IMG/VR virus record: IMGVR_UViG_3300030099_006944
Location: 123,356 to 187,355 of that record
Length of the DNA stretch: 64,000 nt
Strand: one strand, 5' to 3'
Source of the DNA: a virus
Shown here: positions 4,626 to 63,561 of the stretch, piece after piece
Position numbering within the stretch: the first letter of the stretch is position 1
Layout: every line of letters begins with the position of its first letter
The notes under the pieces: generated by a model
Told to the model about the DNA's origin: nothing
Database searches by the model: none
What the model saw: only the letters and a program-made list of their open reading frames with translations
Program-made: the position numbers and the translations under genes

Positions 4626-7600
4626 ATGTCAACTAACGAAGAAATAGTAAAAAAACTACTTGAGCTTTATTTTCAAAATAAGGAAGGGGAAAACACAAAC
4701 ACTTACATTGATCGCATTAAAAACCTTAAACCTGCTGATAGAACCGCCTTGTTTGACCGTGGGGTTGGCGTGATCGACCTTTCGGGATTGGGGGACTCTA
4801 TCACTGAGCAAAGAAAAGCACGAGCAGAAATGCTTAGTCAATACTGGGAGAGTAGAGGGATTGAAGCCAGCGGTTGGCCATGGGATGTCGTGGTAAGTTT
4901 TATTCAAGACGGCGATCATGCACTGTATCCGAAGGGCTCAGGAAAGAAAGGTCAATTTACACAAGAGGAGTACGTTGCAGCAGCCCGGGCTGGTGTGTTA
5001 AAGGCATCGGAACAAGCAAGCAAGGATGGGGGCGCTCTGGATGTTTGGAACTTTTATGAGGTATGGAGAACCGAAGGAGGGGGTGGAAAGCAATCGGCTC
5101 ACTTTCAGAGAAAAGTCAACAAGAAGAGTTTAGCTGGGCAGACCACATCTACAACCACTACTGGTTCGGGTCCAAAAACGAAACTGTGGTCGTTATATCA
5201 CAGAATTGTTGAAGGGGGTATACACTTCTTTAAGGATGAAACAAGTGATGGTGAGCCACTGTGGGGTTTCGATGGAAGAGATATGAGTGCCCGGACGGAT
5301 ATTAGTGGTATAAGAAGCAAGAACTGGGCCCCGGGGAAGCCCGGTCCATTCTTTCTGGCTCTCACAGAGGATAATGCAATCGGAGAGAAAGGTGATAATT
5401 TTTTGGGTTTCCAAACTGGAGAAAATCTATCGAGTATCGCTAGCATTGATGGAGATGGGATTGAAGATAGCAAAGTCGAGGAAGGTGATTATTCTGACTA
5501 TTCTCAATGCTTGATTTTGGCTTCTTATTTAAAATCTCCAAAGATGGAGATTAATTATTTCGCAAAACAAGGATTACTAGCAAAACAAGGTGACCCAACA
5601 GCTTATTGGAGCGACAGGATTATACCTCTGTGGCTTGAAGATCCAGATAAGTTTATAAATTACAGTATTATGCCTCCAACTTATTCTGATTTTTTCAAGA
5701 ACTTGCAAATCGATCCTCAAACGGGTAACTTCTTGAAGATCAATGAAGAATATAGACCCGCTATTGATCCAATGGCGTATTCCAAGATGGTGTTAAAGAC
5801 GTCTTTGAAATATATATATACTGAATACAATTCTGATAATACTCCAACAATCATCGATGTCCCCATAAGAAACAACTCGGTTGAAACATTACAGGGTGAT
5901 TATTTTAAATTAAGAATTGCGAATGATATTTCTTCACGGGTCGTTAGTGATGATGATGCCATGGTTATTAAAGAGTCCGGAGGCATATTCAATTCACTAC
6001 AAGACATAAAAGACTTCATAAGTAGCGTGAAAAACGCAGCTAACACCGGGGAAAACAATAATTTTTATCACCTAGAAAACGTGGATATTAAATTTGATGG
6101 TACCAATCCATCTACTGCTAGGAAAGATGTGCAGGTCTCGTTGAAATTTATTTGCGATTCTTTTCACACTTTTAGTACATATGAGATTTCCGACAAGGGA
6201 CTGCTGGGTAAAGATTTCAAAGGTAATTCAAAGAAAATTACATTAGCAGATCTGGTTTCTTTACCTACTACTGGTAAAACAATCAACGATTCTGAGCCCG
6301 GAGGGTTTATTAAAAATCAGTTTAGTCCCAACTACAATCGACTACAATTATCGATAAGCCACTTCAACTTAGTACAAGAGAGAGTATCAAAAGAAGAATC
6401 AACAACAGAGAGTGATGATAACTTTGGAGGTAGAGGAGTAGGTACACAAGGTCATCGCGGTACCACAGGTAACAACAGTGCTGGTGGGGACACAATAAGT
6501 TTCAAAAAAGTTAGCGAAAATGAATGGATTAAAACATCAAAAGCTGACGGTAACGATATGATATTGGATCTTTCCGTTATTGATCACACGATTGAAAGAG
6601 ATCCGGCAACCGGTTTTATCACTTTTACTGTAAATTATCGCGGTTATTTTGATTCTATGTTAACCACTCCTGCTTGTGATGCTTTAGCTGACAAACGAAT
6701 CAATGACAGGCGCAGCCAAAGAGATAAGCTATTAAGAAATGCAGCCAGAATAGGTTGCACCAGAAACGAAATAAAAGAAATAATGGACAAAAACCAAGCA
6801 ACCGCTCAGTTGGAAAAAGATCGCGCCATGGCATCTATAATTGAGCGATTGGCAACAAGAGGGAGACTATATGTTACAGATATCCCAACTAGTCATTTAA
6901 AGAGTTTTGTGCAGACAGGTCACCTAAACAAAACTGCTAGGGAATCTGTTGATATCATCATTGATATAGAATCACCCGTCGGTGGTGGTACTAGTATTGC
7001 GCAACTCCTAGGAGAAAGCGATATCGATCGAGCCGAATCAGAAGACATAGAACTTCAAGATAGAAACTGGGGTGGTGATGTTGCGGCCGGATTTGATGCT
7101 GCTTGGGACAAATATGTCACGGGCGAAGGCTCAGAAGGCTTTTCCGATGCGTATGGCGCTAGTGATATATATCAAAAATACAGAGACGGTCGTTCTTGGA
7201 GGACATGGTCTTTTTTCTTAGGTGATCTTTTGGATGTTATTTCGGATAGTATATACGAGGAAGGAACCAGCGTACACCACAAGCAATACAAAGCAATGAA
7301 TTTGAAATTTATGGCTTCTACATTTGCGATACCGGATTTTTTTAGCGAAGTCGGCGAGGATCATGATGATATATTGAGAAACATTCTCTCGGTACCTATT
7401 TCTTTGGATTTTTTCAAAAAATGGTTTAATGAAAACGTAACCAATAAAGATCTATTGTTTTACCCTATGGGCACCATGATTAAAGATTTAGTCGAACGCG
7501 TGATATCAGGTCTTCTATATGAAACATGTTTATCAAGCCCAACCGATACTCCCCCTATATTTAGAATTGGGTATTTTACGGATTGTAGAAAACGATATAA

Positions 7601-26445: not shown

Positions 26446-26625
26446 ATGTTAAGAATTGTGAACGTTATTTTATTTATATCAGTGGTCTTGGGTATATATC
26501 TCACCACAGAGGTTGATGATAAATCAGAAAAACAAGAAGTGGTTGAAATCTATCCGGGTGATACCGCTGATGAGTATGAAAAAATAAAGGAGATTTTAGG
26601 GTCCGAAAAGGCTTCGACGGAGTAG
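26446..26625 (+). CDS. 59-aa single-TM protein overlapping tmRNA 5' end
   Basis: Hand-translated MLRIVNVILFISVVLGIYLTT...GSEKASTE*; GGAGG SD 26437-26441. Confidence 0.65.
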   Translation: MLRIVNVILFISVVLGIYLTTEVDDKSEKQEVVEIYPGDTADEYEKIKEILGSEKASTE

Positions 26626-26930
26626 AATCAAGGGGAGAGTGCATGCAGGGAAGATACGCCCTTAACAGTTCAAGTTTTATAAACGCAAACAATAATTTGT
26701 ATTTCGAAGAAGCCCTAGCGGCTTAATCGGGTGGCTGCTCCGAGCCATCTATCCAAGAGGAGCAAAACAACAGGACAGTTGTAAAAATCAAAACAACTCA
26801 ACGCAACAGGACGGTAAGCGTTGTTTTATGACCGTCTATCTTTCTGGTTGGAGAAATAATCAGATAAGCATGTGAACGACTCAAACTAAGACTATTGCGG
26901 ACGCGGGTTCAACTCCCGCCGGATCCACCA
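26599..26930 (+). ncRNA. ssrA: tmRNA
   Basis: Acceptor GGGTCCG/CGGATCC-ACCA with G3.U70, 5' TTCGAC motif, T-arm GCGGGTTCAACTCCCGC, tag frame 26685-26726 ANNNLYFEEALAA*. Confidence 0.95.
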
Positions 26931-26936
26931 AACATT

Positions 26937-27008
26937 GCGGGTGTGGCTCAGTGGTAGAGCATCGCGTTGCCAACGCGAGGGTCGTGGGTTCGAATCCCAT
27001 CACCCGCT
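26937..27008 (+). tRNA. tRNA-Gly(GCC), CCA not encoded
   Basis: GCGGGTG/CACCCGC acceptor, TCGCG-TTGCCAA-CGCGA anticodon arm, GGTTCGAATCC T-arm, U73. Confidence 0.95.
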
Positions 27009-51884: not shown

Positions 51885-52155
51885 AGACCGTAGGGTTTCT
51901 GCTGTTGTGGTGTCCTTATACAACCGCGGACAGTTCCTGTATTGTTATATCTTGGAAACTGACACGTATCGCTTGGTTTATGAAGGAGAGGTTGAGTTTG
52001 TGATCACAAATGATTTCGGAACAGACATGAAAATGGATCATGATATATATAATTTAGACTATTCCTTCTATGAAGCATGCTCGGAGCTATTCGCTTACTC
52101 TCCTTTTTACGGATCTTTGCTTGACGAGGAAGATCTTAGTGAAGAAGACGAATAG
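51841..52155 (+). CDS. Small SH3-like protein with acidic tail
   Basis: SKGDLI...AVVV. Confidence 0.55.
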   Translation: MKCSKGDLIAIRTIEDRRVSAVVVSLYNRGQFLYCYILETDTYRLVYEGEVEFVITNDFGTDMKMDHDIYNLDYSFYEACSELFAYSPFYGSLLDEEDLSEEDE

Positions 52156-52517
52156 TGTCAAAAAAATGTCAAATGTTCGTCAAATGTCAAGTGTCAAAAA
52201 GTTGTCAAATTTCTCGATTTGTCCCATAGTTCGGGCTTTGTAGAGATCTCTTGACATTTTTTTGACAAAAAACTTTACATAACTATACACTTCGCTGTAA
52301 AAAAACTTTACATAACTCCAAAAAACTTAACATAACTCGTAAAAAACTTTACATAACTATGGAGTTGCTGTAAAAATAAAATCACGGAAAACTCCCATGA
52401 TATGGTAATATAACACGTTTCCACACATTTGTCAAACATTTTCTTGACATTCTCTTGACAAAAAACTTTACATAACTATACCAATATGTAAAGGAAATGC
52501 AAAAACTTTACATAACT
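52156..52517. repeat. Non-coding repeat cluster (iteron-like 17-mers and TGTCAA/TTGACA repeats)
   Basis: AAAAACTT(T/A)ACATAACT at 52268, 52301, 52321, 52342, 52461, 52501; TGTCAA/TTGACA pairs at 11-bp period. Confidence 0.9.
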
Positions 52518-52556
52518 ATACACATGCGCGATACCTTTTATTACCACATGCGAGGC

Positions 52557-52620
52557 GGTCAAAAAATGTCCGAAAAAGGAACAGAAAAGATTTGACAACT
52601 GAACCACAACGGGATACAAT
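52557..52620 (+). promoter_or_regulatory. Early-type promoter P0 with displaced palindrome
   Basis: GGTC-N7-GTCC 52557-52571; TTGACA-17-TACAAT. Confidence 0.8.
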
Positions 52621-52650
52621 ATAGTATAACCCTAAAATCAGGAGGACAAA

Positions 52651-52896
52651 ATGATAGAAGGATTATTGTACAGTTGCCGCTGGCGAACGAACCAGTGGAA
52701 CTATGATAACAACTCATGGGATCGTGGTTGGGATATGCTTATATTTATAGGAGTAGAGACAATCAATCGTGATGATGGAGTTGTGATAAATAACTATCGT
52801 TTCCACGATATAATCAATAACAAAAGCATCCTGATGGACAAAGGTCTTATCAGGCATTGCAAAGAAATCAAAGGAGATAGCCATGAGTGCGATTAA
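52651..52896 (+). CDS. Hypothetical protein
   Basis: GGAGG SD, 81 aa. Confidence 0.65.
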   Translation: MIEGLLYSCRWRTNQWNYDNNSWDRGWDMLIFIGVETINRDDGVVINNYRFHDIINNKSILMDKGLIRHCKEIKGDSHECD

Positions 52897-53140
52897 AAAA
52901 ATGAACCAAGAACTTAAAAAAATATTAGGCAGAGAACCAACGATCCACGAACAGATCGACATTCTTATATTGAAATCTATCAAAGATAGAGTACTAGAAC
53001 TCCAGCTAACATACCAGATAAACCCGAATGAAGAGTTGCAAGAGCAATATGAACGAGCAGTGCGCTGCATGCAAGAAGTACAGGATCGAAATCCCGAAAT
53101 CTTCGGAGGGATAGATAGCGATGGAGGTGACTATGAATAA
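52883..53140 (+). CDS. Hypothetical helical protein
   Basis: GGAG SD, 85 aa. Confidence 0.6.
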   Translation: MSAIKKMNQELKKILGREPTIHEQIDILILKSIKDRVLELQLTYQINPNEELQEQYERAVRCMQEVQDRNPEIFGGIDSDGGDYE

Positions 53141-53351
53141 CTTTAAGATCGGAGACTTTGTAAAAAGCGACACGGATGATTTGTTCATCGGGCTTATCGT
53201 AAGTGAAAATTACAAAGGCTTTGAGGTTGCTTGGGACGATGGGGACTTCACCTATGGTGAGGGCAAAGGTACAATGTTTCTCCATGAGATGAAGCCGAGC
53301 GATTGGACACCAGCACTCTACAAAGCATTTTCGGACTTTTTTTGTCCTTGA
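53133..53351 (+). CDS. Small SH3/KOW-like protein
   Basis: FKIGDFV...GLIV...VAW. Confidence 0.65.
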   Translation: MNNFKIGDFVKSDTDDLFIGLIVSENYKGFEVAWDDGDFTYGEGKGTMFLHEMKPSDWTPALYKAFSDFFCP

Positions 53352-53375
53352 TTTATTTTAACAACGTGATACAAT
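53333..53375 (+). promoter_or_regulatory. Early-type promoter P1
   Basis: GGAC-N7-GTCC, TTGATT-16-TACAAT. Confidence 0.8.
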
Positions 53376-53408
53376 TATAGTATAACCCAAACGACCTAGG
53401 AGGTCAAC

Positions 53409-53750
53409 ATGAAAAACATAAAAGAATGTATTCACTGCGGTGAAGAGTTTAGTTTACACTGCCCTAAAAAGCGACGAGTAGGTGGCAAGATCAACGAGTG
53501 TCCCGATTGCGTCGAGGAGCTGGGTCTTGAAATCAAGAGTAGAGTTCGTGCCTTCACTACTGGTGATGGTAAAATGTCTGCTATGCAGATCCTGCGCTTC
53601 GAGAATGAAGATGATGCTGACGCTTACGGCAAGACTTGGGAAGCCAACCGTGGCTGGAACAACCAACGTCGTGGCGGTCTTAACAACGTGGCTTTCTCCA
53701 AGGTTGGAGAGAACATCGGCAACTCTAATCACAAGGGGAAAGCATCATGA
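53409..53750 (+). CDS. Zinc-ribbon protein
   Basis: CIHC...CPDC. Confidence 0.65.
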   Translation: MKNIKECIHCGEEFSLHCPKKRRVGGKINECPDCVEELGLEIKSRVRAFTTGDGKMSAMQILRFENEDDADAYGKTWEANRGWNNQRRGGLNNVAFSKVGENIGNSNHKGKAS

Positions 53751-53905
53751 AATCAGGAGACTTGGTAATGACCAAAAGCACAAAAGAAATAGGTATCGTT
53801 GTCAGTGCATCTTCGACACACTGTGCAGTCTTTATTCACAAGAACAGGACGAAGAAAGTGAACCTAACATTCCGTATCCATAAGGATCTATTGGAGGTAA
53901 TATGA
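53747..53905 (+). CDS. 52-aa SH3/KOW-like protein
   Basis: Hand-translated MKSGDLV...IGIVV...LLEVI*. Confidence 0.7.
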   Translation: MKSGDLVMTKSTKEIGIVVSASSTHCAVFIHKNRTKKVNLTFRIHKDLLEVI

Positions 53906-54042
53906 AAGTAGGTGATTTAGTTTATTATGGCTACGACAAGTCTGTCGGTGTTGTCATAGAAGTTAAGGAAAATGGAGATTGCCGTTGTGTTTTCGATGGG
54001 ATAATCTATCTATGCGCCCAGCAATCATTGGAGGTAATATGA
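53902..54042 (+). CDS. 46-aa SH3/KOW-like protein
   Basis: Hand-translated MKVGDLV...VGVVI...SLEVI*. Confidence 0.7.
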   Translation: MKVGDLVYYGYDKSVGVVIEVKENGDCRCVFDGIIYLCAQQSLEVI

Positions 54043-54236
54043 AAACAGGTGACTTGGTATCTTGGTCTTTATCTTGGGTCGTGAGTTGTTCGGACGTTAA
54101 TAAAGAAATGTATCGTAACCAACTCGGTTTCATACTACGCAAGTCAGAAGATATAACAAACTGCTGGTTTGTGCTCTGGGATGATGGAAAAACAAGTGAA
54201 GTGCATAAAGATTATTTGGAGGTAATATGCGAATAG
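54039..54236 (+). CDS. 65-aa SH3/KOW-like protein
   Basis: MKTGDLV...VLWDDG...LEVICE*. Confidence 0.7.
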   Translation: MKTGDLVSWSLSWVVSCSDVNKEMYRNQLGFILRKSEDITNCWFVLWDDGKTSEVHKDYLEVICE

Positions 54237-54382
54237 GTGATCTAGTTAGGCATAAGGAACACCATGGTTACATGGGAATAGTAGTGGAACTCGGCTTTCG
54301 AGACATGCTTGTTGCTTGGCACGATGGAGAGTTATCTTGGACTTACAAAAGTCAGATGGAGGTGATAAATGAAAGTGGGTGA
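54227..54382 (+). CDS. 51-aa SH3/KOW-like protein
   Basis: Hand-translated MRIGDLV...VAWHDG...MEVINESG*. Confidence 0.7.
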   Translation: MRIGDLVRHKEHHGYMGIVVELGFRDMLVAWHDGELSWTYKSQMEVINESG

Positions 54383-54575
54383 TTTAGTTATGTGGATACA
54401 ACAAGACCACCATCATGGAATGATTGGGGTTATCGTAGATATAGAAACACCAGAGAGCAACCCAGCATTTAACAGAACCATGTATGATGTTCTGTGGGCT
54501 GATGGTGTTGTAGGGTTTGAACTCTACGCTAGCGAACTTATGGTGGTGGAAGATGAAGAAATCTCCACAGTTTGA
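54369..54575 (+). CDS. 68-aa SH3/KOW-like protein
   Basis: MKVGDLV...VLWADG. Confidence 0.7.
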   Translation: MKVGDLVMWIQQDHHHGMIGVIVDIETPESNPAFNRTMYDVLWADGVVGFELYASELMVVEDEEISTV

Positions 54576-54750
54576 GATCGGTGATCTCGTCGAGTTCAGA
54601 TATGACCTTTTATATCAACAGTTGGTCGGTATCGTTACCTATTACTATATGTACAACGGGCATTTGTGGTACAAAGTTCAATGGGCTAATGGCAAAGAAC
54701 AGGATATAGCCGAGATAGAGCTAAAAAAAGTAAAAACGGACAAAAAATGA
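54553..54750 (+). CDS. SH3/KOW-like protein
   Basis: FEIGDLV...VQWANG. Confidence 0.65.
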   Translation: MKKSPQFEIGDLVEFRYDLLYQQLVGIVTYYYMYNGHLWYKVQWANGKEQDIAEIELKKVKTDKK

Positions 54751-54780
54751 CCTTGCTTTTTCAGCAGGGTATGATACATT
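54738..54780 (+). promoter_or_regulatory. Early-type promoter P2
   Basis: GGAC-N7-GACC, TTGCTT-16-TACATT. Confidence 0.8.
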
Positions 54781-54811
54781 ATTAGTATAACCAACAAACA
54801 GGAGGTGTCCA

Positions 54812-55183
54812 ATGGGATACAGATCAGACGTTGCAATAGCAATACACAAAGACTTACAAGGTGATTTCCTCACCTTCCTCAACACAGAAGAACTCATGGC
54901 TGAAATCTTCGGAGATGACTCTTACTTTAGTTTAGACAAGGACTACAAAGGCGAAGGGCACTGGCTCTTTACAGCCGAGGACATCAAGTGGTACGCAACT
55001 TGGGATGAGTTCGCAGACATTCAGATGTTCGAGAAGTTTATGGACGCTATGGAAGAGGAAGAAGAGAAAAGAGAGAAGTATCGTTTCATCCGCATTGGCG
55101 AAGAACTCGAAGATATAGAGTATCGTGGCGATTGGTACGAAAGTGAGATCCATGTCAAGCGTGAAATACAAGTGGGGTGGTAA
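54812..55183 (+). CDS. Hypothetical acidic protein
   Basis: MGYRSDVAIAI..., GGAGG SD. Confidence 0.7.
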   Translation: MGYRSDVAIAIHKDLQGDFLTFLNTEELMAEIFGDDSYFSLDKDYKGEGHWLFTAEDIKWYATWDEFADIQMFEKFMDAMEEEEEKREKYRFIRIGEELEDIEYRGDWYESEIHVKREIQVGW

Positions 55184-55185
55184 TC

Positions 55186-55344
55186 ATGAATGTAGGTGAT
55201 TTAGTAAGATACAAAGATGATGATGACATCGGTGTTATCATGTGGATTGGTACAACCAAACTTAGTTATTATATTCAGTGGGCTGACGGCACAGATGGCT
55301 TCCACATAGCAAGCGAATTCGAGGTGATAAATGAAAGTGGGTGA
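55186..55344 (+). CDS. 52-aa SH3/KOW-like protein
   Basis: Hand-translated MNVGDLV...IQWADG...FEVINESG*. Confidence 0.7.
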   Translation: MNVGDLVRYKDDDDIGVIMWIGTTKLSYYIQWADGTDGFHIASEFEVINESG

Positions 55345-55495
55345 TTTAGTAAGTCCCAAGCACACAAAGTGGCTATTTGGTATTGTCGTTAGGCAACCAA
55401 TGGAACACGGAGTACTATGGATGATCCAGTGGAGCAATGAAAAGCGTAGTTTGGAACGAAAAGAGAACTTGGAGGTGATACATGGAAGTAGGTGA
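55331..55495 (+). CDS. 54-aa SH3/KOW-like protein
   Basis: Hand-translated MKVGDLV...IQWSN...LEVIHGSR*. Confidence 0.7.
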   Translation: MKVGDLVSPKHTKWLFGIVVRQPMEHGVLWMIQWSNEKRSLERKENLEVIHGSR

Positions 55496-55631
55496 TTTAA
55501 TTAAGAGGCGTAATAATGGAGACTTGGCGATAGTTCTCAAAATCTCCAAGCGGAGAGTGAAGATAATGCGTCTTTCCTGTGGAAACACCCAGTGCGTCTG
55601 GGATTATGAATATGAGGTGATAAATGGCTAA
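55482..55631 (+). CDS. 49-aa SH3/KOW-like protein
   Basis: Hand-translated MEVGDLI...YEVING*. Confidence 0.65.
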   Translation: MEVGDLIKRRNNGDLAIVLKISKRRVKIMRLSCGNTQCVWDYEYEVING

Positions 55632-55923
55632 CATATATTGGAACAAAGAGAAAGCCCCGTTTGACGAGGCAGAAGAAAAAATAAAACCCTTGGTGATAGA
55701 GTGTACGGATAGTGCCTTCTTCATTAAGAAACATTCGGGAGACTGCGGTACTACCATGAATGTATATGCGGAGACTGATGATCCAGAAGTCTCCTCATGG
55801 CATACTCGCCTCCCAGCCCAGTTCATGGGCTGGCGTGTGTTGATGTACAACTGCCCCACGGGCTACATAAAAGCGTTTCTTGACGTTAAGAAGGAGGATA
55901 ACGATGATGTTTCAGGTTGGTGA
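55624..55923 (+). CDS. Hypothetical protein
   Basis: GAGG SD, 99 aa. Confidence 0.6.
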   Translation: MANIYWNKEKAPFDEAEEKIKPLVIECTDSAFFIKKHSGDCGTTMNVYAETDDPEVSSWHTRLPAQFMGWRVLMYNCPTGYIKAFLDVKKEDNDDVSGW

Positions 55924-56101
55924 TTTAGTAAGGATTAAGTATGGCTTCACAGACAGCGACAGCAATGAGTTCGATTGGATAGGCATGATACTCTCCTACC
56001 GTGGCAAGAGTGGGCTAGACAACGAGGACGAGTGGATAGTGCAGTGGGCACATGCTGCACATGAAGCAGTCGAATACGGCTACTACTTGGAGGTAATATG
56101 A
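55904..56101 (+). CDS. SH3/KOW-like protein
   Basis: FQVGDLV...VQWAH...LEVI*. Confidence 0.7.
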   Translation: MMFQVGDLVRIKYGFTDSDSNEFDWIGMILSYRGKSGLDNEDEWIVQWAHAAHEAVEYGYYLEVI

Positions 56102-56247
56102 AAGTAGGTGATTTGGTCAGAATGACCCAGTATCACTACTGGGGTCTGGGTATAGTGGTGGCTCTCGATGAAGATGTAGCCGCATTTATCCGTTGGGCTG
56201 ATGGTCGCGGCGGGGGGAGATACATAGAAGATTTGGAGAAACTATGA
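56098..56247 (+). CDS. 49-aa SH3/KOW-like protein
   Basis: Hand-translated MKVGDLV...IRWADG...LEKL*. Confidence 0.7.
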   Translation: MKVGDLVRMTQYHYWGLGIVVALDEDVAAFIRWADGRGGGRYIEDLEKL

Positions 56248-56519
56248 TTAAAATAAACAGAAATAAAAAAGCCATTCAGATCGGGGAACTGGTCATTGTA
56301 AAGAAATGGGTAACAAACAAGGGCTATGTTTATTCCGACAGGATTGGAATAGTCATGGCTGATGAAGGTGTCGATGAACTCGGGCAAGAACAATGGGGTC
56401 GTTGGCACGTAGCGTTGGAGAATGGAGATTACATTGGCTGTTCGTCCAACGAGATCGAAGTAATACAGGAGGTGGACGATGGATCTGATAGAACTACAGC
56501 TCTCAGTGAGAACCATTGA
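56244..56519 (+). CDS. SH3/KOW-like protein
   Basis: IQIGELV...IGIV...IEVI. Confidence 0.6.
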   Translation: MIKINRNKKAIQIGELVIVKKWVTNKGYVYSDRIGIVMADEGVDELGQEQWGRWHVALENGDYIGCSSNEIEVIQEVDDGSDRTTALSENH

Positions 56520-56685
56520 TATATTGCAAAAGGTTGGCGTTTGGCATGTTGAGGACATCTTAGAGAAAATGAAGACAGACCCCACCAGTATGACACTAGC
56601 CTTGGCTAAAATAAATGCAAAAGACTTCGCCGAGATTACGGGGGAGATAGGAAAACGGACAAAAGTTGTCCTCGACAATCCTTGA
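56479..56685 (+). CDS. Stand-alone RNA polymerase alpha-CTD-like protein
   Basis: LIELQLSVRTIDILQKVGVWHVEDIL...KINAKDFAEI matches LELSVRxxNxLxxxGIxxVxDL pattern; GGAGG SD. Confidence 0.65.
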   Translation: MDLIELQLSVRTIDILQKVGVWHVEDILEKMKTDPTSMTLALAKINAKDFAEITGEIGKRTKVVLDNP

Positions 56686-56699
56686 AAACAGGATACATT
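56657..56699 (+). promoter_or_regulatory. Early-type promoter P3
   Basis: GGAC-N7-GTCC, TCGACA-16-TACATT. Confidence 0.8.
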
Positions 56700-56731
56700 A
56701 TTAACATAACCCAAACGACTTGGAGGTCGAA

Positions 56732-57703
56732 ATGAAAATATACGAAGATCGCGATAGCAATAAACGAACAACTCATTGCCCTACCTGTGGCAATGAAGGT
56801 CACATGTGGATGACTTGCCCTGTTCCAGCCAAAATGATGGAGTTAAAGAAACAAGGCAAAGAGCCTGACATAAGCCTGTTTTCCACTTGGTATCAGGGTT
56901 CTTACTCCCGTAGGGATACTAATGGTAAACTTGTTTATCACGACCGCATTTTTAGCCAAATGAGATCAGCCTACGACAAACAACAACGTCGGATAGAGTA
57001 CAGAAAAGAAAAGAAAGCCCGTAAAGAACGGCTCTACGGCAAACCTGCAAAGCGTAAAGTTTCTTGTGGGTTCTGCGGAGAGACTGGGCATAACCGTAGG
57101 CACTGTGATCTAATGGTCAACTTTGTTGATGATCTCGAACGAGCCTCTCAGAACTATCGCAAGCAGTTCTACGAGCGTTTTGTCAAAGGTATGGGCTTCG
57201 CCGAAGGTGCTCTACTCAGCTTAAGTGCAAGTCATTTCATGATTAACAACCGATGGATAGAAGATTGGTCTGGTATTGGAGTTATCACTAGAATAAGTTG
57301 GGAAGATGTTAACATGGGTCTAACTATGAATAGTTGGGATTACAAATCCACTTTGGAAGTGGACTGCCTTATCGATGGAGAAACCTATACAATAAAAAAT
57401 CCCTTTTCCCACCTAAGCGACAAAGCACTCAACGGCGATGTAGCTGATCTGTTCAGCAGCGGTAGCAGATGGGGTGCTCGAATAGACAGCGTACTAGCAC
57501 CTAGCGAGAACATTCCTTCGGAAGAATGGTTTAACGATGGTTACACCGAGTGTTGGGAGTGGATAGCAAAGAACAAATCTTTGTCAGATGTTTCAGCCTA
57601 CCTATCTCCCCTGATAGCCAAGTGGCATCCATCCCGTAGAGGTCGCAATGCAGGAAAGTTGAACTACCGATTGTCCCAGTATGGCTATAAAAGACCAAAG
57701 TAG
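56732..57703 (+). CDS. Double CCHC zinc-knuckle protein (paralog A)
   Basis: CPTCGNEGHMWMTC and CGFCGETGHNRRHC. Confidence 0.8.
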   Translation: MKIYEDRDSNKRTTHCPTCGNEGHMWMTCPVPAKMMELKKQGKEPDISLFSTWYQGSYSRRDTNGKLVYHDRIFSQMRSAYDKQQRRIEYRKEKKARKERLYGKPAKRKVSCGFCGETGHNRRHCDLMVNFVDDLERASQNYRKQFYERFVKGMGFAEGALLSLSASHFMINNRWIEDWSGIGVITRISWEDVNMGLTMNSWDYKSTLEVDCLIDGETYTIKNPFSHLSDKALNGDVADLFSSGSRWGARIDSVLAPSENIPSEEWFNDGYTECWEWIAKNKSLSDVSAYLSPLIAKWHPSRRGRNAGKLNYRLSQYGYKRPK

Positions 57704-57745
57704 GACATTTTCTGTCCTTGCTTTTTCCGAATACCATGATACATT
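57703..57745 (+). promoter_or_regulatory. Early-type promoter P4
   Basis: GGAC-N7-GTCC, TTGCTT-16-TACATT. Confidence 0.8.
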
Positions 57746-57775
57746 TATAGTATAACCCAAACAGCGGAGGACAAA

Positions 57776-58003
57776 ATGCTGGTAGAAGTTGGAGATATGA
57801 TATATTGGTTAGATGGTGCTGGTGAAACCGACATAGGGTGGGTAGTTTCTGTGGAAAGACGTAGTCCCCTCGGATACGGCGAACTAGAAAACCTCATTCA
57901 TATAAGGTGGTTATTCAAGGAAGAACGCAAGAAGCGCATCTGGGAACAAACTATTAAGGAAAACAGTTTTATAACACTAATAAAAGGAGGTCAGCATGGC
58001 TGA
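57776..58003 (+). CDS. SH3/KOW-like protein
   Basis: VEVGDMI...IGWVV...IRW. Confidence 0.65.
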   Translation: MLVEVGDMIYWLDGAGETDIGWVVSVERRSPLGYGELENLIHIRWLFKEERKKRIWEQTIKENSFITLIKGGQHG

Positions 58004-58277
58004 ACCAATGGACAAAATAGAAGTAATAATGAAAACTGCCAAAATGCTGGCAGATGAAAACCGCGGAGAATGGTCAGGTGATGTTCATGAGTTTGCCACA
58101 GCAAGCGCATATATCACCTCTGACGAGCGTTTGTGGCTGACGAGCCATGATGTTAAGGTGTTCCACAAAGAACTCAAAGATGGGGCTTTTGTGAGCGAAT
58201 ATGCCTATGTTTCAGCCTCATATGCAGATGGGCAACCTCTGCTAGTCGTAACAGATGTAGACACAGGGAAGGTGTAG
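57996..58277 (+). CDS. Hypothetical protein
   Basis: GGAGG SD, 93 aa. Confidence 0.6.
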   Translation: MAEPMDKIEVIMKTAKMLADENRGEWSGDVHEFATASAYITSDERLWLTSHDVKVFHKELKDGAFVSEYAYVSASYADGQPLLVVTDVDTGKV

Positions 58278-58278
58278 C

Positions 58279-58485
58279 ATGTACAGATACAAAATAGGGG
58301 AACTGGTCGAACTGTCTGCGGCTGGTCGGAAAAGAGATCACAACGACAAGGTTTATGACATGATAGGAATGGTTCTCAGGATAGACAACATGGAAAAATA
58401 CCCCTACATTATCCAGTGGTTCGGAAATGTTCCATATGGAACATTTCCGATGAAAGAATATGAGATCAAACGGGTTCGAGGATAG
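58279..58485 (+). CDS. SH3-like protein, paralog of 60354
   Basis: GELVELSAAGRK...PYIIQW...YEIKR. Confidence 0.7.
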   Translation: MYRYKIGELVELSAAGRKRDHNDKVYDMIGMVLRIDNMEKYPYIIQWFGNVPYGTFPMKEYEIKRVRG

Positions 58486-58502
58486 CGAGTGAATAGCAAA
58501 GC

Positions 58503-58545
58503 GGACATTTTTTGTCCTCGACAAATCGTCGGAACGTGATACATT
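58503..58545 (+). promoter_or_regulatory. Early-type promoter P5
   Basis: GGAC-N7-GTCC, TCGACA-16-TACATT. Confidence 0.8.
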
Positions 58546-58576
58546 ACTAACATAACCCAAAACAACGGAGGCAACA

Positions 58577-58840
58577 ATGCCAAAACGTAAACCAAAAATG
58601 ACTGATTTAGAGGCTACAATGATAGCTGAAGGCGCACAGGAAGCAGAAAGCGATGAGCAATACATAGCCGCTTGGCAACATCTTATAGACACGGGACTTG
58701 CATGGTCTTTGCAAGGTTTCTTCGGTCGCACCGCTTCTGTTATGATACAGAACGGCTTGTGTTACATGCCTATCAAGAAGCAACCTAAAAAGCCAAAGTC
58801 CACAGGTGGACAAACCCCTAGAACTCCAGAGGAAAAGTAA
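58577..58840 (+). CDS. Hypothetical phage protein
   Basis: WQHLIDTGLAWSLQGFFGRTA; GGAGG SD. Confidence 0.7.
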   Translation: MPKRKPKMTDLEATMIAEGAQEAESDEQYIAAWQHLIDTGLAWSLQGFFGRTASVMIQNGLCYMPIKKQPKKPKSTGGQTPRTPEEK

Positions 58841-58841
58841 A

Positions 58842-59738
58842 ATGAATATATATAACAACGATGGAAAATCATCCAGCAGACGAAAATCAAAATGTTCCTA
58901 CTGCCGAGCAGAAGGGCACAACGCAACCGAGTGTCCCCGTGTAGCCGAGGACTATGCTTGGTTCTCCCAGTCCCCTCCCGTGATACCCATAGGGGTAAGT
59001 AAGTCTACTGCTACCTGCCAATGGTACAGCAACCCGAAGTATTGGGGAGAGTGGTATCAAAAGTGCATTGACGCTCATGCAAAGCAAGAAGCCGCTAAAA
59101 AGAAAATCAAGTCCTCTCCTGCTGGGAGTGCTAGGTCAGCCCCCAAGTGTGGGTTCTGTGGCTCGATACACCACAACCGCCGCAACTGTGATGCTATGAC
59201 AGACTACACAGCCGATGCTATAGCTGCTAATCGAAACTGGCGAAGGGCTTTCTATGAAAAGTTTGTACAAGAAATGGGTATCTCCGAAGGAGCGTTGTTG
59301 AATGTTGCACAAAAGCAAGGATATGGCAACCCCGACAAAGAGACAATCGCTGTCGTTACAGCAGTCAACTGGGATGAACTGTCGTTATTCTGTGGTTCTC
59401 CTAACACCAGCGGATACTGCTATCGTGACGAGAACTACAAGCAGTATCTCAAAGTCACTGTTCAAATAGGGAGCGACACTCATACCTTGAACTTTGAGAA
59501 AGGCATTGATCACCGTATATCCAACAAAACCAAGAGGAACTTGGTCAAGTTCTCGGGACAACGATACGGCTGGGGCAATCCGCATTTCATATCAGTACTC
59601 TCAGCAGCACCAACTCCCCTTGGTGCGGAGTGGATAAATGAAGGGCATGCCAAGGCTATGGAGTTCTTAACGAAAAAACGCTCCAAAGCAAAACTCGATG
59701 AAGCTGATGTGACCGACCTTATCAAACTATGGCTGTAA
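58842..59738 (+). CDS. Double CCHC zinc-knuckle protein (paralog B)
   Basis: CSYCRAEGHNATEC and CGFCGSIHHNRRNC. Confidence 0.8.
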   Translation: MNIYNNDGKSSSRRKSKCSYCRAEGHNATECPRVAEDYAWFSQSPPVIPIGVSKSTATCQWYSNPKYWGEWYQKCIDAHAKQEAAKKKIKSSPAGSARSAPKCGFCGSIHHNRRNCDAMTDYTADAIAANRNWRRAFYEKFVQEMGISEGALLNVAQKQGYGNPDKETIAVVTAVNWDELSLFCGSPNTSGYCYRDENYKQYLKVTVQIGSDTHTLNFEKGIDHRISNKTKRNLVKFSGQRYGWGNPHFISVLSAAPTPLGAEWINEGHAKAMEFLTKKRSKAKLDEADVTDLIKLWL

Positions 59739-59742
59739 AATC

Positions 59743-59785
59743 GGTCATTTTCTGTCCTCGACAAATCTTCAAATCGTGATACATT
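59743..59785 (+). promoter_or_regulatory. Early-type promoter P6
   Basis: GGTC-N7-GTCC, TCGACA-16-TACATT. Confidence 0.8.
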
Positions 59786-59816
59786 ACTAATATAACCCAA
59801 ACAACAGGAGGCTCTT

Positions 59817-60014
59817 ATGGACTACCAAACTCGAAATGGAGAACAGGCTGGTGACCTTGTTCACTGGACTGACTACACCGCTAACTACTTTGAAGATCCT
59901 CAGGATTACATTGGAATTATCCTAGACTACTCCCCTAGAGAGGACATGTTCATTGTTCTCTGTGAAGGAAAGCAGTGCTCTTGGCTTGCTTGGCAATGTG
60001 AGGTGGTGTCATGA
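59817..60014 (+). CDS. SH3/KOW-like protein
   Basis: AGDLV...IGIIL...CEVV. Confidence 0.65.
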   Translation: MDYQTRNGEQAGDLVHWTDYTANYFEDPQDYIGIILDYSPREDMFIVLCEGKQCSWLAWQCEVVS

Positions 60015-60172
60015 AGATAGGCGATTTAGTAAAAGGCAAGAAGAACGAAATACTCGGCTATGTAACGAACAATCGGATCTCTTATGGGGAAAAATGGGTC
60101 GTAGTCTATTGGCTCAAAGTAGAACTCCAATCAATACAGCATATCGACGACTTGGAGGTAATATGCAAATAG
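60011..60172 (+). CDS. 53-aa SH3/KOW-like protein
   Basis: Hand-translated MKIGDLV...VYW...LEVICK*. Confidence 0.7.
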   Translation: MKIGDLVKGKKNEILGYVTNNRISYGEKWVVVYWLKVELQSIQHIDDLEVICK

Positions 60173-60366
60173 GTGATTTAGTAGATGATGGGTTTGGTTG
60201 CTTCGGTGTAATCACTGCGCTTGGATGGATTTTTCCTGAGAGTGTAAGCGGAAAGATCGCGGCTTATCATGTCCACTTCCCAACAGATCCCGCCCTCAAC
60301 GGGTGGTATGAATACAATGACTTAAAACTTATTTCCCGAACTGTGGAGGAAACATGCAAAAAATAA
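60163..60366 (+). CDS. SH3/KOW-like protein
   Basis: MQIGDLV...FGVIT. Confidence 0.7.
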   Translation: MQIGDLVDDGFGCFGVITALGWIFPESVSGKIAAYHVHFPTDPALNGWYEYNDLKLISRTVEETCKK

Positions 60367-60569
60367 AAAATGGAGAACTGGTCGAACTTTCTTCAGCTGG
60401 TCGAAAAATGAAACAGAACGATGAGGTGGTAGGGCTGTGGGGCATGGTCATGGAATACGACAGTACAAATCGACACCCTTATAGAATACAGTGGTATAAA
60501 GCCGATGGAACTACAAAGAAGTTCCCTATGGCTCGATATGAAATCAAAAGATTTAGAGGTGTGAAATGA
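60354..60569 (+). CDS. SH3-like protein, paralog of 58279
   Basis: GELVELSSAGRK...PYRIQW...YEIKR. Confidence 0.7.
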   Translation: MQKIKNGELVELSSAGRKMKQNDEVVGLWGMVMEYDSTNRHPYRIQWYKADGTTKKFPMARYEIKRFRGVK

Positions 60570-60742
60570 AGGTTGGAGATTTAGTGAGATATGGTGGAAG
60601 CAAAGATTGCTTGGGGATTGTCACGAGGGTCGTAACATCAAAAGCAGTTGACAGAAGCGCATGCGCTGTACGCTGGGCGAATGGAGTGACAAGTCACCAT
60701 TCAACAAAGTGGCTCATCCCCGTGAAGCCGGAGAACAAATGA
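60566..60742 (+). CDS. 58-aa SH3/KOW-like protein
   Basis: Hand-translated MKVGDLV...LGIVT...VRWANG. Confidence 0.7.
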   Translation: MKVGDLVRYGGSKDCLGIVTRVVTSKAVDRSACAVRWANGVTSHHSTKWLIPVKPENK

Positions 60743-60746
60743 AAGC

Positions 60747-60789
60747 GGTCATTTTCTGTCCTTGACTTTTTCTCACAATCGGATAGATT
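60747..60789 (+). promoter_or_regulatory. Early-type promoter P7
   Basis: GGTC-N7-GTCC, TTGACT-16-TAGATT. Confidence 0.75.
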
Positions 60790-60819
60790 ATTATTGTAAC
60801 CCAAACAAACGGAGGTCTT

Positions 60820-61011
60820 ATGGACTACCAAATCGGCTCAAAACTAAAAGTAAACTTTTCTGGAAAGACAGAGATTGTCTATGTTATAGAAAAGAGTGAT
60901 AACATCTTCGACACAGGCTCTAAGGGATTTGTAGCGTACATCGAGTGTGATGGCTACACTGTTGACTGCTGGGCTTATGACTTTGATATATTGGAGGTTC
61001 TATGCAAGTAG
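60820..61011 (+). CDS. SH3-like protein
   Basis: YQIGSKL...ILEVL; GGAGG SD. Confidence 0.6.
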   Translation: MDYQIGSKLKVNFSGKTEIVYVIEKSDNIFDTGSKGFVAYIECDGYTVDCWAYDFDILEVLCK

Positions 61012-61187
61012 GGGATTTAGTAAAATGCGCTTTGGATATCTATGGAATAGGTATTGTTATCAAAACTGGGGTGAAAGTAGGCTACAGGCAAAGAATAAAA
61101 GTCCAGTGGCTCAATCCTCCCGAATGGCTCTTGACGAGTGGCGGGAACATAGCCAGCCACTTTCCCAGTAACTTGGAGGCAATATGA
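61002..61187 (+). CDS. SH3/KOW-like protein
   Basis: MQVGDLV...IGIVI...VQW...LEAI*. Confidence 0.7.
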   Translation: MQVGDLVKCALDIYGIGIVIKTGVKVGYRQRIKVQWLNPPEWLLTSGGNIASHFPSNLEAI

Positions 61188-61405
61188 TTTTTAATGTAAC
61201 AAAGTACGTTTATGTACTCCAAATACGATATAGCGGTAATGAGGACGATGTTTATGTTTTCTCCACAAGAGAAAAGGCAGAAGCAATGGTCTATGAGTTC
61301 TTTGAGCACATCGAAGAACCGAGAATGAAACTCGATGACTTTGAGGAATACTTATTCTCTCAGGACATTGGCTACTTTACTATTGAAAGACAAGAAATAC
61401 AATAA
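61184..61405 (+). CDS. Hypothetical protein
   Basis: VYVL...VFSTREKAE pattern. Confidence 0.65.
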   Translation: MIFNVTKYVYVLQIRYSGNEDDVYVFSTREKAEAMVYEFFEHIEEPRMKLDDFEEYLFSQDIGYFTIERQEIQ

Positions 61406-61415
61406 GGAGGCTCTC

Positions 61416-61613
61416 ATGAGCAATCAAATAAAACTAACAATCGATATATCCGATGAACTTTTGAATAAAATAATAACCGTGATAGCCCTGTCTGGTGCTA
61501 CTCCCCCAACCCCGATGGGCGGTGTACCTATGGTAATGCAGAAAAGCCCAGCTAAAGAACCAGAGCGTCCTTCTATGGGCTTCCAGCCTCCAACAAAGGA
61601 AGGTGACAAATGA
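61416..61613 (+). CDS. 65-aa protein with Pro-rich tail
   Basis: AGGAGG SD before ATG 61416. Confidence 0.6.
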   Translation: MSNQIKLTIDISDELLNKIITVIALSGATPPTPMGGVPMVMQKSPAKEPERPSMGFQPPTKEGDK

Positions 61614-61792
61614 CCCCTTTTGAGAAAGCCGCCTACAACGTCAAGCAGTTGGCTATAAGACTGAGCCTGTATCAGTTAATGTTACAGACAGTCGAAGACA
61701 CCAAGGACTTAGATGAAAAAGAGGCTGATTTAGTGTGGGAAGTTATTTTGGCAATGCTGGAAGCCTCCGACCTTGGGGGAGAAATCAACTAG
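61610..61792 (+). CDS. Hypothetical helical protein
   Basis: ATGA overlap, 60 aa. Confidence 0.55.
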   Translation: MTPFEKAAYNVKQLAIRLSLYQLMLQTVEDTKDLDEKEADLVWEVILAMLEASDLGGEIN

Positions 61793-61793
61793 T

Positions 61794-61846
61794 GGACATT
61801 TTTTGACCCTTTTTGACTTGACAAATCAGCTAGAACCTGATAAGCT
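61794..61846 (+). promoter_or_regulatory. Early-type promoter P8 with displaced palindrome
   Basis: GGAC-N7-GACC, then TTGACA-17-TAAGCT 9 bp downstream. Confidence 0.7.
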
Positions 61847-61878
61847 ATAGATATAACCCAAACAGATGGAGGTCGAAA

Positions 61879-62577
61879 ATGACCATTACCGTGAAACAAT
61901 TAGTTAAAGCCGCCGAAAATGCTAACAAACTCGGCAACCTTCGCGATTGCAGTACCCTAGCAGACTTGGCTGGTAGTGTTAAGAAGTGGGGGAAACTCAC
62001 CTCTCGTCAAGCCGAGTTCGCAGCGGCTCTTATCGAGCGCAACTCAAACGAGAAGGCTAGTAAGATTGATGAAGAGCGTGAGAACCACCGTATCAAGTGG
62101 CAAGAGGATGGTGCTTATCGCGAATGGGTTCTGTTCTTGGCTACATTCTTTGCTACTTCTGGACAGACAGCATATCAGCACCATATCCACAACAGGCAGC
62201 GCAATGCTCGTAGGGTTCTCCAAGCCTCCCGTGATGCGGAAGGTGGTGTACCTAGCCTCGATGATTGTAATCGCTTGACCACTTCCAAGTTAGCCCCAAG
62301 ACTTCGAGATACTTTTGAGAAGCCCCTACTCTACTCCGTAGGTGACCTAGTACAGGTTCGTGCTAGTGAGTTGCGCTACGGAGAAAGAGCCAAAGGCTTG
62401 GGAGAGCAAATGGGCTGGATCATAGACACCAACGCTCGCAACGTCCATCGTGTCGCGACTTATAGCAAGACCAAGGGTGGAACTCGGATCTACAAAGTTA
62501 TGTTCCCTTCGGGAGAACAGTACCGAGAAGAACGACAACTTAAACTTGTATCCAGAAAGAACCACAACAAGGAGTAG
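61879..62577 (+). CDS. Hypothetical protein with C-terminal SH3-like domain
   Basis: YSVGDLVQV...MGWII near C-terminus. Confidence 0.65.
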   Translation: MTITVKQLVKAAENANKLGNLRDCSTLADLAGSVKKWGKLTSRQAEFAAALIERNSNEKASKIDEERENHRIKWQEDGAYREWVLFLATFFATSGQTAYQHHIHNRQRNARRVLQASRDAEGGVPSLDDCNRLTTSKLAPRLRDTFEKPLLYSVGDLVQVRASELRYGERAKGLGEQMGWIIDTNARNVHRVATYSKTKGGTRIYKVMFPSGEQYREERQLKLVSRKNHNKE

Positions 62578-62579
62578 CC

Positions 62580-62762
62580 ATGGAAATAGGAACTTTAGTT
62601 ACCCACATCCACGATCAATACGAAGGTATAGGGATAGTGATACATGACGACCAACGAGAATACACAGAGGGCGAGAAATACTCAATGGTTACAGTCCATT
62701 GGCTCGATGGCGTTGGGGTTGGTCTTTACTGGACTGATGAATTGGAGGCAATATGCAATTAG
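62580..62762 (+). CDS. SH3/KOW-like protein
   Basis: MEIGTLV...IGIVI...VHWLDG...LEAI. Confidence 0.7.
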   Translation: MEIGTLVTHIHDQYEGIGIVIHDDQREYTEGEKYSMVTVHWLDGVGVGLYWTDELEAICN

Positions 62763-62968
62763 AACTTGGACAGCTTATCATAGACGCACACGAAGGCTAC
62801 CGAGATACAGGCGTAGTTATCGAAATCTACGAAGATTGCTATGGTGACAACATTTACAGCATTTTTTGGGTTTGTCCTCGGGATAGAGGGCACTACACCA
62901 CTACCCTAGCATACACAGAAGAAGAACTCGATATGGAATACTCCCACTGCTTCGAGGTCATACGATAA
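62753..62968 (+). CDS. SH3/KOW-like protein
   Basis: LGQLI...TGVVI...IFW...FEVI. Confidence 0.65.
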   Translation: MQLELGQLIIDAHEGYRDTGVVIEIYEDCYGDNIYSIFWVCPRDRGHYTTTLAYTEEELDMEYSHCFEVIR

Positions 62969-62969
62969 C

Positions 62970-63012
62970 GGACATTTTTTGTCCTTGACTTTTCACCACA
63001 AAATGATACATT
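62970..63012 (+). promoter_or_regulatory. Early-type promoter P9
   Basis: GGAC-N7-GTCC, TTGACT-16-TACATT. Confidence 0.8.
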
Positions 63013-63043
63013 ACTTATATAACCGAAACGACTGGAGGACATT

Positions 63044-63220
63044 ATGTCGTACAAATGTAGATCACCCTGCAAATCTTCGAAAAAGAAGAAACAACCCAAA
63101 GAGCGGAACTGGTTGGCAGTTCGCGCATTTCAAAGAAGCGGTGCTGGTGTTCACACCGATAAAAAAAAGAAACGCAATAAACGTGCCTGTCGAGGCAAAG
63201 TCAAGCAACCAAACTATTAG
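63044..63220 (+). CDS. 58-aa highly basic peptide
   Basis: Hand-translated; GGAGG SD; RNWLAVRAFQRSGAGVHTDKKKKRNKRACRGK. Confidence 0.7.
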   Translation: MSYKCRSPCKSSKKKKQPKERNWLAVRAFQRSGAGVHTDKKKKRNKRACRGKVKQPNY

Positions 63221-63229
63221 GAGTTAACT

Positions 63230-63514
63230 ATGTTAGCAAATCAACTTATCTCTCTTCTCTCATTTCAGTCTTTCACTCGTGGTTCTCGTAAAGACGATAT
63301 ATCCTTGAACCCTGCCAGTATTCAATATATAACAACTGATAGCCGCCCTGTAAACACCGAAGGTGGTACATTCTATGCGACAGTTATTCATCTTGCGAAT
63401 ACTTCGATCAAAGTAGCCCAAAGCAGAGAGTTCATCGAGTTCCAAGTAAATCGGTCTAGAGAACCTGAGCAAGAATATATTCAGGATAGATCCCAACTCG
63501 CCGCTGCTAAATAA
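63230..63514 (+). CDS. FlbD-like small protein
   Basis: ISLNPASIQYI...TVIHL...VAQS..FI. Confidence 0.5.
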   Translation: MLANQLISLLSFQSFTRGSRKDDISLNPASIQYITTDSRPVNTEGGTFYATVIHLANTSIKVAQSREFIEFQVNRSREPEQEYIQDRSQLAAAK

Positions 63515-63518
63515 AAAC

Positions 63519-63561
63519 GGACATTTTTTGTCCTTTACAAATCCCTCCAACGTGATACATT
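63519..63561 (+). promoter_or_regulatory. Early-type promoter P10
   Basis: GGAC-N7-GTCC, TTTACA-16-TACATT. Confidence 0.75.

Follow-up and report, generated by a model that had tools for sequence, protein, structure and literature searches.

The alpha-CTD of bacterial RNA polymerase is a docking hub for UP elements and many activators. The known phage strategies against this domain use either enzymes or unrelated binders. For instance, T4 Alt and ModA ADP-ribosylate R265 of alpha (PMC2988021), and gp67 of the S. aureus phage G1 binds region 4 of sigma-A and blocks the contact of alpha-CTD with UP elements. The gp67 promoter of phage G1, which has an extended -10, was not inhibited by gp67 in vitro (PMC3694059). 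In addition, free alpha-CTD proteins are common in the sequence data of phages and are already present in the public databases under automatic names, and no functional study of them was found in a full-text literature search. Here, we describe a 68-aa protein of a marine phage that appears to be a strongly diverged relative of this domain, and we discuss what it might do in the infected cell.

The source of the DNA is an uncultured marine phage. The window analyzed in this study is the last 64 kb (64,000 nt) of its 187,355-bp IMG/VR record, which was rated complete by CheckV. The phage genes include those for a DnaB-like helicase, a ribonucleotide reductase, a DnaE-type DNA polymerase, and GroEL. 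No close relative was found among isolate phages, and the phage GroEL is too divergent to name a host. Several features elsewhere in the genome were also recorded. A tmRNA (Rfam RF00023, 103 bits; tag peptide ANNNLYFEEALAA), directly followed by tRNA-Gly(GCC), lies at 26599-27008 of the window, and the tag might be useful for host identification. A divergent control region or an origin may be present in the intergenic region at 52130-52650, where a 23-nt direct repeat (AAAAACTTTACATAACTATAC-like) occurs six times, together with perfect 17-nt inverted repeats (TGTCAAAAAAATGTCAA / TTGACATTTTTTTGACA) and strong promoter-like sites on both strands. Outside the window, a 237-aa ORF (record G000:C1:46230-46328) gave a weak Sigma70_r2 match (E = 0.015) and may encode a diverged phage sigma factor for late genes.

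The initial annotation had reported a 68-aa ORF with a GGAGG Shine-Dalgarno sequence. Its coordinates are right, and AGGAGGT was found six nt before the ATG (Table 1). The first homology search yielded 20 homologues of the protein at 69-78% identity, and a wider profile search yielded 143 (at least 140), all of them metagenomic and some derived from Tara and other marine metagenomes. Every family member is 61-76 aa long, the gene has identical placement in seven independent contigs, and its dN/dS ratio is 0.08-0.26 where dS is unsaturated. Thus, with homologues of one size class, conserved synteny, and these ratios, the ORF is a real gene under purifying selection. Meanwhile, similar DNA or protein was absent among 50,697 isolate phage records, no homologue was present in 185,579 prokaryote species genomes, and PHROGs offered no meaningful family for the protein or its relatives. 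The protein is free-standing, that is, no linker connects it to the N-terminal dimerisation domain of alpha. No fused form was found in a profile search of 1.84 billion representative proteins, and a dedicated search for longer relatives was also empty, which is weak evidence. Furthermore, no alpha-NTD was found near the gene.

Table 1. Positions of the gene, its control elements and neighbors, and family residues at the positions equivalent to E. coli alpha-CTD determinants
Feature	Position	Strand	Details
alpha-CTD-like ORF	56479-56685	+	68 aa; ATG at 56479, stop codon ends at 56685; (HhH)2 core = residues 1-58, basic tail = residues 59-68
Shine-Dalgarno AGGAGGT	56467-56473	+	six nt 5' of the alpha-CTD-like ATG; read directly from the sequence
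Palindrome GGACA-N5-TGTCC, GGACAAAAGTTGTCC	56657-56671	.	within the last codons of the alpha-CTD-like ORF; encodes part of the tail (K)RTKVV
Sigma-70-type promoter of the next gene	56672-56699	+	-35 TCGACA 56672-56677; 16-nt spacer; -10 TACATT 56694-56699
Nearest upstream palindrome-promoter module	54738-54780	+	
91-aa SH3-like gene	56244-56519	+	weak NifZ match; overlaps the alpha-CTD-like start by 41 nt
323-aa protein with two CCHC zinc knuckles	56732-57703	+	follows the alpha-CTD-like gene in every context
Zinc-knuckle paralogue	58842-59738		
R265 equivalent	family position 11		R29, K19, S12, T6, M4, N2 (of 72)
N268 equivalent	family position 14		D42, H17, N12 (of 72)
G296 equivalent	family position 46		K48, N17 (of 72)
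K298 equivalent	family position 48		D or E in 56/72
S299 equivalent	family position 49		D in 72/72

At the sequence level, the resemblance to alpha-CTD is weak for the single protein and significant, beyond chance, for the family. The window protein matched PF03118 (RNA_pol_A_CTD) with 15.6 bits (E = 0.013), below the gathering threshold of 23.8 bits and over residues 3-34 only, which correspond to the first HhH. Its sequence matches to alpha subunits in the PDB had E-values of 0.04-0.9, and a precomputed PF03118 match was carried by only two family clusters. When the family profile was run with hmmsearch against the 1.84 billion representative proteins, a few clusters of its own family came first, followed by unambiguous alpha-CTD proteins, which were reached over positions 2-60 at E = 9e-7 to 5e-5. 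These proteins are themselves PF03118 members at E = 1e-20 to 1e-100. In hhalign, the family aligned with the metagenomic protein P0030 at 94.6% (E = 6.5e-8, columns 4-58), and with a protein containing a partial RpoA dimerisation domain and three alpha-CTD copies at 71% (E = 3.6e-5). In addition, 61 of the 74 aligned sequences, each scanned singly, matched PF03118 at E ≤ 0.1, and other families never recurred. The alpha-CTD likeness suggested by the initial annotation was thus borne out by the family profile and by hhalign, with both HhH motifs covered.

The AF2 model built on the 74-sequence alignment (pLDDT 91, pTM 0.74) has an (HhH)2 fold with helices at residues 3-6, 10-18, 24-33, 35-44, and 47-66. 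An earlier model from 20 close homologues (pLDDT 59) was set aside. The Foldseek list obtained with the model was dominated by alpha-CTDs (Streptomyces, Mycobacterium, Helicobacter, Vibrio, Synechococcus, Thermus, Bacillus, and E. coli), and its E-values were all above 0.4. Structural alignments with alpha-CTDs gave Z = 5.0-6.3 and rmsd = 2.6-3.1 Å over 56-58 residues, with model residues 1-61 corresponding to E. coli 255-311. Other (HhH)2/SAM-like domains, including Brr2 Sec63, LINE-1 ORF2p, and the Rad51 N-terminal domain, were tied with them at Z of about 5-6, so the fold alone gives no pointer to transcription. The HhH alpha-CTD fold expected from the earlier reading was recovered in the model, and the profile and structure comparisons pointed mostly to alpha-CTDs, with the ties remaining. 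The predicted fold agrees with alpha-CTD homology and proves nothing by itself. Taking sequence and fold together, we consider it very probable that the 68-aa protein is homologous to the RNA polymerase alpha-CTD.

To compare the functional residues, E. coli positions were mapped via hhalign and the structural alignment, and residues were counted over 72 family members. At R265, N268, G296, K298, and S299, the window protein has R (R11), D (D14), N (N46), K, and D (D49), respectively. The earlier claim that the N, G, and S positions are changed is therefore correct. The accompanying claim that the Arg is kept is right for the window protein, where R11 occupies the position of R265, but it does not extend to the family, in which Arg is found in 29 of the 72 members. 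The complete 265 determinant for UP-element DNA, formed by these five residues, was not found in the family, and, judging from the aligned positions, the family has not maintained it. Because the Arg is unconserved and two key DNA-contact positions are acidic, canonical binding of A/T tracts is unlikely. Basic residues are still supplied by K44, K46, and the KKRTK tail, and the Asp at the S299 position could be a simple helix N-cap. The median pI of the core is 4.2. Genuine alpha-CTDs are also net acidic, according to our own reading of the E. coli sequence. Thus, overall acidity was set aside as an argument against DNA binding, and the specific contact positions were used instead.

Other parts of the domain are retained or rebuilt. 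D259 and E261 of E. coli alpha-CTD face sigma region 4. In the family, position 5, the equivalent of D259, is E or D in 66 of 72 members, and position 7, the equivalent of E261, is E in 35 and Q in 34. These residue types fit the acidic 261 determinant as far as the alignment can tell. The N-terminal signature ELxLS(V/I) is also retained. Meanwhile, the equivalent of the 287-determinant loop contains a 4-residue insertion with an invariant Pro35, and a near-invariant Trp22, which should be solvent-exposed if the alpha-CTD structures are a guide, stands in the first HhH hairpin. Most of the other invariant residues (S9, L16, L42, I45, and F50) are at core or helix-capping positions in alpha-CTD. 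Of the hairpin glycines, the second is gone, and the first is Gly in 38 and Asp in 33 of the 72 members (Gly20 in this phage).

The C-terminal tail of the protein requires separate consideration. The initial annotation had noted that the 3' end of the gene overlaps a palindrome, and this was confirmed: GGACAAAAGTTGTCC at 56657-56671 is followed by TCGACA. The -35 of the next promoter and its spacer as far as 56685 are inside the last codons and the stop codon of the alpha-CTD-like ORF, and downstream of the -10 the conserved module goes on with ATAACCCAAAC and GGAGG. In the family, CGGACAAAAAATGTCC and the T(C/A)GACA behind it, which are the palindrome and the -35, code for the tail RTKNVLD. 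This dual coding is found at 56652-56685 of the window, at about 2115-2157 of L081, and at about 2662-2704 of L083. In L002 and L003, which are without that palindrome, TTGACA contains the stop codon TGA, and the protein is shorter at its C-terminus. Thus, the conservation of the tail is imposed by the DNA. This overlap illustrates that conservation of a protein sequence can come from a DNA element and not from the protein's own function.

Palindromes of this type are numerous in the genome. For the pattern GGACA-N5-TGTCC with at most one mismatch, chance alone would give 1.2 matches in the window; we found 12 there and 18 in the genome. Sixteen of these 18 copies belong to a composite module consisting of the palindrome, a -35 (TTGACA or TCGACA), a 16-17-nt spacer, (TG)A-TACATT, ATAACCCAAAC, and GGAGG, and all 16 modules are located at 175.9-187.3 kb or 0.8-7.3 kb of the record (window 52557-63561; record 788-7267, L007). 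At the early promoters, a near-consensus -35 is accompanied by a TGn extended -10 and by a palindrome that occupies the proximal UP position. In 12 module copies, the palindrome abuts the -35 and has its center near -42. Measured against the -10, the palindrome of the four others is shifted by 10, 10, 11, and 21 bp, which corresponds to one or two turns of the helix. Since helical phase is kept in the displaced copies, a protein touching RNAP from one face of the helix is suggested, and the pattern fits, on sequence grounds, a site for a dimeric protein that contacts RNAP in this way. In five copies, the middle of one half-site has an A/T change (GGTCA/TGACC variants) that is not compensated in the other half-site. 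The palindrome regulon, with its 16 promoter modules and helical phasing, is real.

We also considered the palindrome as an intrinsic terminator or RNA hairpin. This was rejected because the hairpins are weak, the changes are uncompensated, and the copy inside the alpha-CTD-like ORF has no T-run. The palindrome stem alone has -6.4 to -6.9 kcal/mol and the GGTCA variant -2 kcal/mol; the copy at 58503 reaches -11.7 kcal/mol through a second, adjacent stem.

The placement of the alpha-CTD-like gene within the palindrome regulon, as originally described, is correct, and the early region, where the palindrome promoters are found, includes the gene. A module search of the genome found no further module between 54780 and 56657. 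We infer that the module at 54738 drives a run of nine or so small genes ending with the alpha-CTD-like gene, and that this run is one transcription unit or operon. The gene is surrounded by dozens of small early genes without assigned function. More than twenty genes of 45-90 aa encode one SH3-like type of protein (MKVGDLV ... LEVI; window 53768-62968 and record 3775-5983), and they are often joined by an identical stop/SD/start junction. The 91-aa neighbor upstream of the alpha-CTD-like gene is related to this type and is much more strongly conserved. The 41-nt overlap of the two genes is the same in seven of seven contexts, and the 91-aa protein shows 78-84% identity versus 47-66% for its alpha-CTD-like neighbor. 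Furthermore, the two genes share one distribution: like the alpha-CTD-like gene, the 91-aa gene occurs in G001 and G002 but not in G003 or G004. The constant overlap, the high conservation, and the shared presence and absence suggest a two-gene module, and the 91-aa protein is a candidate partner on gene arrangement alone.

What could such a protein do? Our preferred reading, which we hold tentatively and at somewhat less than an even chance, is that it is an alpha-CTD-derived decoy or adaptor that does not bind DNA but a protein partner, and that it acts on host transcription. Under this proposal, an early phage protein descended from the bacterial RNA polymerase alpha-CTD would have lost the reading of DNA and would serve for protein binding instead. 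The decoy would occupy a partner with which the host alpha-CTD normally interacts (for example, region 4 of sigma, an activator, or a different RNAP-associated factor), and the host promoters that depend on alpha-CTD (UP- or activator-dependent) would be weakened. The early promoters of the phage would be spared, having no alpha-CTD dependence, as we propose from their strong near-consensus -35, extended -10, and own upstream palindrome site. The protein would probably act jointly with the 91-aa SH3-like protein.

Several observations support the decoy, which was the other possibility offered by the initial annotation and which would fit the residue pattern. The DNA-touching residues are lost, which makes protein binding likelier than binding to promoter DNA. 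In addition, the gene is located in the early region, it is the terminal gene of a run behind a sigma-70-type promoter, and it is under selection. However, K44 and K46 remain nearby and the Asp at S299 may be an N-cap, so that DNA binding is possible. The contact between alpha-CTD and sigma region 4 is weak and DNA-dependent in known systems, and a free domain might thus compete poorly. Moreover, the structural matches are tied with other (HhH)2/SAM-like domains, and it is gene arrangement that links the 91-aa protein to the decoy. A more specific version is that the 68-aa protein and the translationally coupled 91-aa protein together form a dominant-negative imitation of the host alpha-CTD, which would dock, without DNA binding, on the RNAP or activator surface that serves alpha-CTD and would turn the alpha-CTD-dependent host promoters off while phage promoters, with their extended -10 and palindrome, stay active. 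We regard this version as unlikely.

A second explanation is that the alpha-CTD-derived scaffold was reused outside transcription initiation, for example as the adaptor of the SH3-like partner in DNA metabolism, anti-defence, or sequestration of host proteins. We consider this rather unlikely. Every specific functional determinant of alpha-CTD that can be tested is changed or rebuilt, and the fold class widely serves protein-protein contacts, as in SAM domains, NusA AR2, and the Rad51 N-terminal domain. In addition, the gene lies among the small early genes of unassigned function, and its closest genuine alpha-CTD, P0030, is encoded in an island of GmrSD, HTH, and kinase genes and not beside RNAP genes. 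However, the N-terminal signature and the sigma-facing acidic positions are retained, early expression as deduced from location fits host takeover, and no positive pointer to another pathway was seen.

The third explanation makes the protein a DNA-binding cofactor of the palindromes. In this view, the early promoters would be activated or shut off by the 68-aa protein, which might dimerize and would be bound at about -42, to either the A/T tract or the GGACA half-sites. The initial annotation had offered this as one of two possibilities and had joined the protein and the palindromes in a single transcription-takeover module. In favor of it, the gene is located within the regulon, with one palindrome at its 3' end, and gene and motif occur together in G000, G001, and G002, so that every phage found with the gene has the motif. 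The palindrome center falls at the proximal UP subsite, and displacements of +10, +10, +11, and +21 bp keep the helical phase. Furthermore, basic residues remain at K44, K46, and the KKRTK tail.

The relatives speak against such a cofactor. When IMG/VR was scanned for the palindrome with the -35, several more phages with many copies were found. Two of them are complete: G003 has 191 kb and at least 10 palindrome modules, and G004 has 184 kb and at least 5. Both share the zinc-knuckle and p99 early families with the present phage at 21-37% identity, and additional shared families are DUF7417 in G004 and p123 in G003. However, a homologue of the alpha-CTD-like protein was absent from both even at E ≤ 1, in a search in which the positive controls were matched (G001, E = 1e-36; G002, E = 1e-32). 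Thus, the co-occurrence of gene and motif gave a negative answer for an obligatory link: with two complete relatives carrying the modules without the gene, the alpha-CTD-like protein is not an obligatory cofactor of the palindrome promoters, and neither the cofactor idea nor the combined takeover module was borne out.

Other observations also disfavor the cofactor. The canonical DNA-contact positions are acidic or variable, and the basic tail is conserved as promoter DNA itself and is missing from L002 and L003. The (HhH)2 domains in the fold-match lists, such as the Rad51 N-terminal domain and the thumb/finger domains of polymerases, bind the DNA backbone non-specifically and not 5-bp half-sites. 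For these reasons, we judge the cofactor explanation improbable. We would place the alpha-CTD-like gene outside the core palindrome regulon, as an accessory module of one sub-lineage. The zinc-knuckle paralogues (about 300 aa, with two CCHC knuckles each) have each their own palindrome promoter. Their family was found in every palindrome-bearing relative examined, including those without the alpha-CTD-like gene, and is therefore a better phage-encoded candidate for the link to the motif.

Finally, a chance resemblance, or a decaying domain without function, is very improbable and largely refuted: the sub-threshold, half-domain Pfam match of the single sequence and the poor Foldseek E-values would agree with it, but the profile evidence is significant over the full domain, most of the aligned sequences match PF03118 on their own, and the gene shows purifying selection and strict synteny.

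If the protein is indeed such a dominant-negative imitation of the host alpha-CTD, it would represent host takeover by mimicry of a polymerase subunit domain, of which we know no characterised example. The family is informative in this respect, because evolution has separated the functions of the domain: the fold and the sigma-facing residues were kept, and the DNA-contact residues were removed. Since the functions are already separated within the family, it can be predicted which surface matters, and the family allows a simple test of the decoy idea.

Compared with the alpha-CTD of RpoA (about residues 250-329; PF03118; PDB 1LB2, 3K4G, 1Z3E, and 9DVT), both HhH motifs of the phage protein are homologous, and its model has the same four- to five-helix (HhH)2 fold. 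The phage family also shares the ELxLS(V/I)R-type signature, and its residues at the positions of D259 and E261 are likewise acidic or polar. However, the phage protein is untethered to the alpha N-terminal domain and falls below the Pfam gathering threshold. The phage family has other residues in place of N268, G296, K298, and S299 (acidic ones at two of these positions) and does not conserve R265. The 4-residue insertion and invariant Pro in the 287 loop, the near-invariant Trp in hairpin 1, and the unmaintained hairpin glycines are further differences.

The closest genuine alpha-CTDs are P0030 and P0036, metagenomic proteins of 136 aa with two canonical alpha-CTD domains each. Their identity to the phage family is 31% by MAFFT and 33% over the hhalign columns, and they have in common with it the EKMNxDP segment and the loop insertion, which is 3 residues long in these two proteins. 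They differ in that the DNA contacts in the first domain of P0030, which is the aligned one, are still R, N, G, K, K, and S, and this domain matches Pfam at E = 1.5e-20. P0030 is located at L004 6001-6411, in a metagenomic island with a GmrSD-type nuclease, an HTH protein, and an APH-type kinase.

The best structural matches of the 68-aa model in BFVD were free alpha-CTD-domain proteins of phages. These include the Mycobacterium phage Mithril protein A0A5Q2WLP1 and entries of 'uncultured Caudovirales phage', which are also encoded by phages without the rest of RpoA. As a virus-encoded alpha-CTD domain with no other part of RpoA, the present protein belongs among them. However, the phage alpha-CTD proteins in UniProt are 111-149 aa long, have residues beyond one domain, and were automatically named alpha-CTD, whereas the family described here is a bare 58-residue domain with a degraded DNA determinant and a tail encoded by a promoter. 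What is new is thus a diverged bare-domain variant, lying below the Pfam cut-off, from which the DNA determinant appears to have been removed.

With T4 Alt and ModA and with gp67 of phage G1, we propose a functional analogy. All would be early or injected products that remove the contribution of alpha-CTD at host promoters, and the promoters of the present phage resemble that of gp67 in carrying a TGn extended -10. There is no homology to these proteins, and the proposed action differs: instead of covalent modification or a sigma-binding protein of unrelated fold, the present phage would use competition by a look-alike of the domain.
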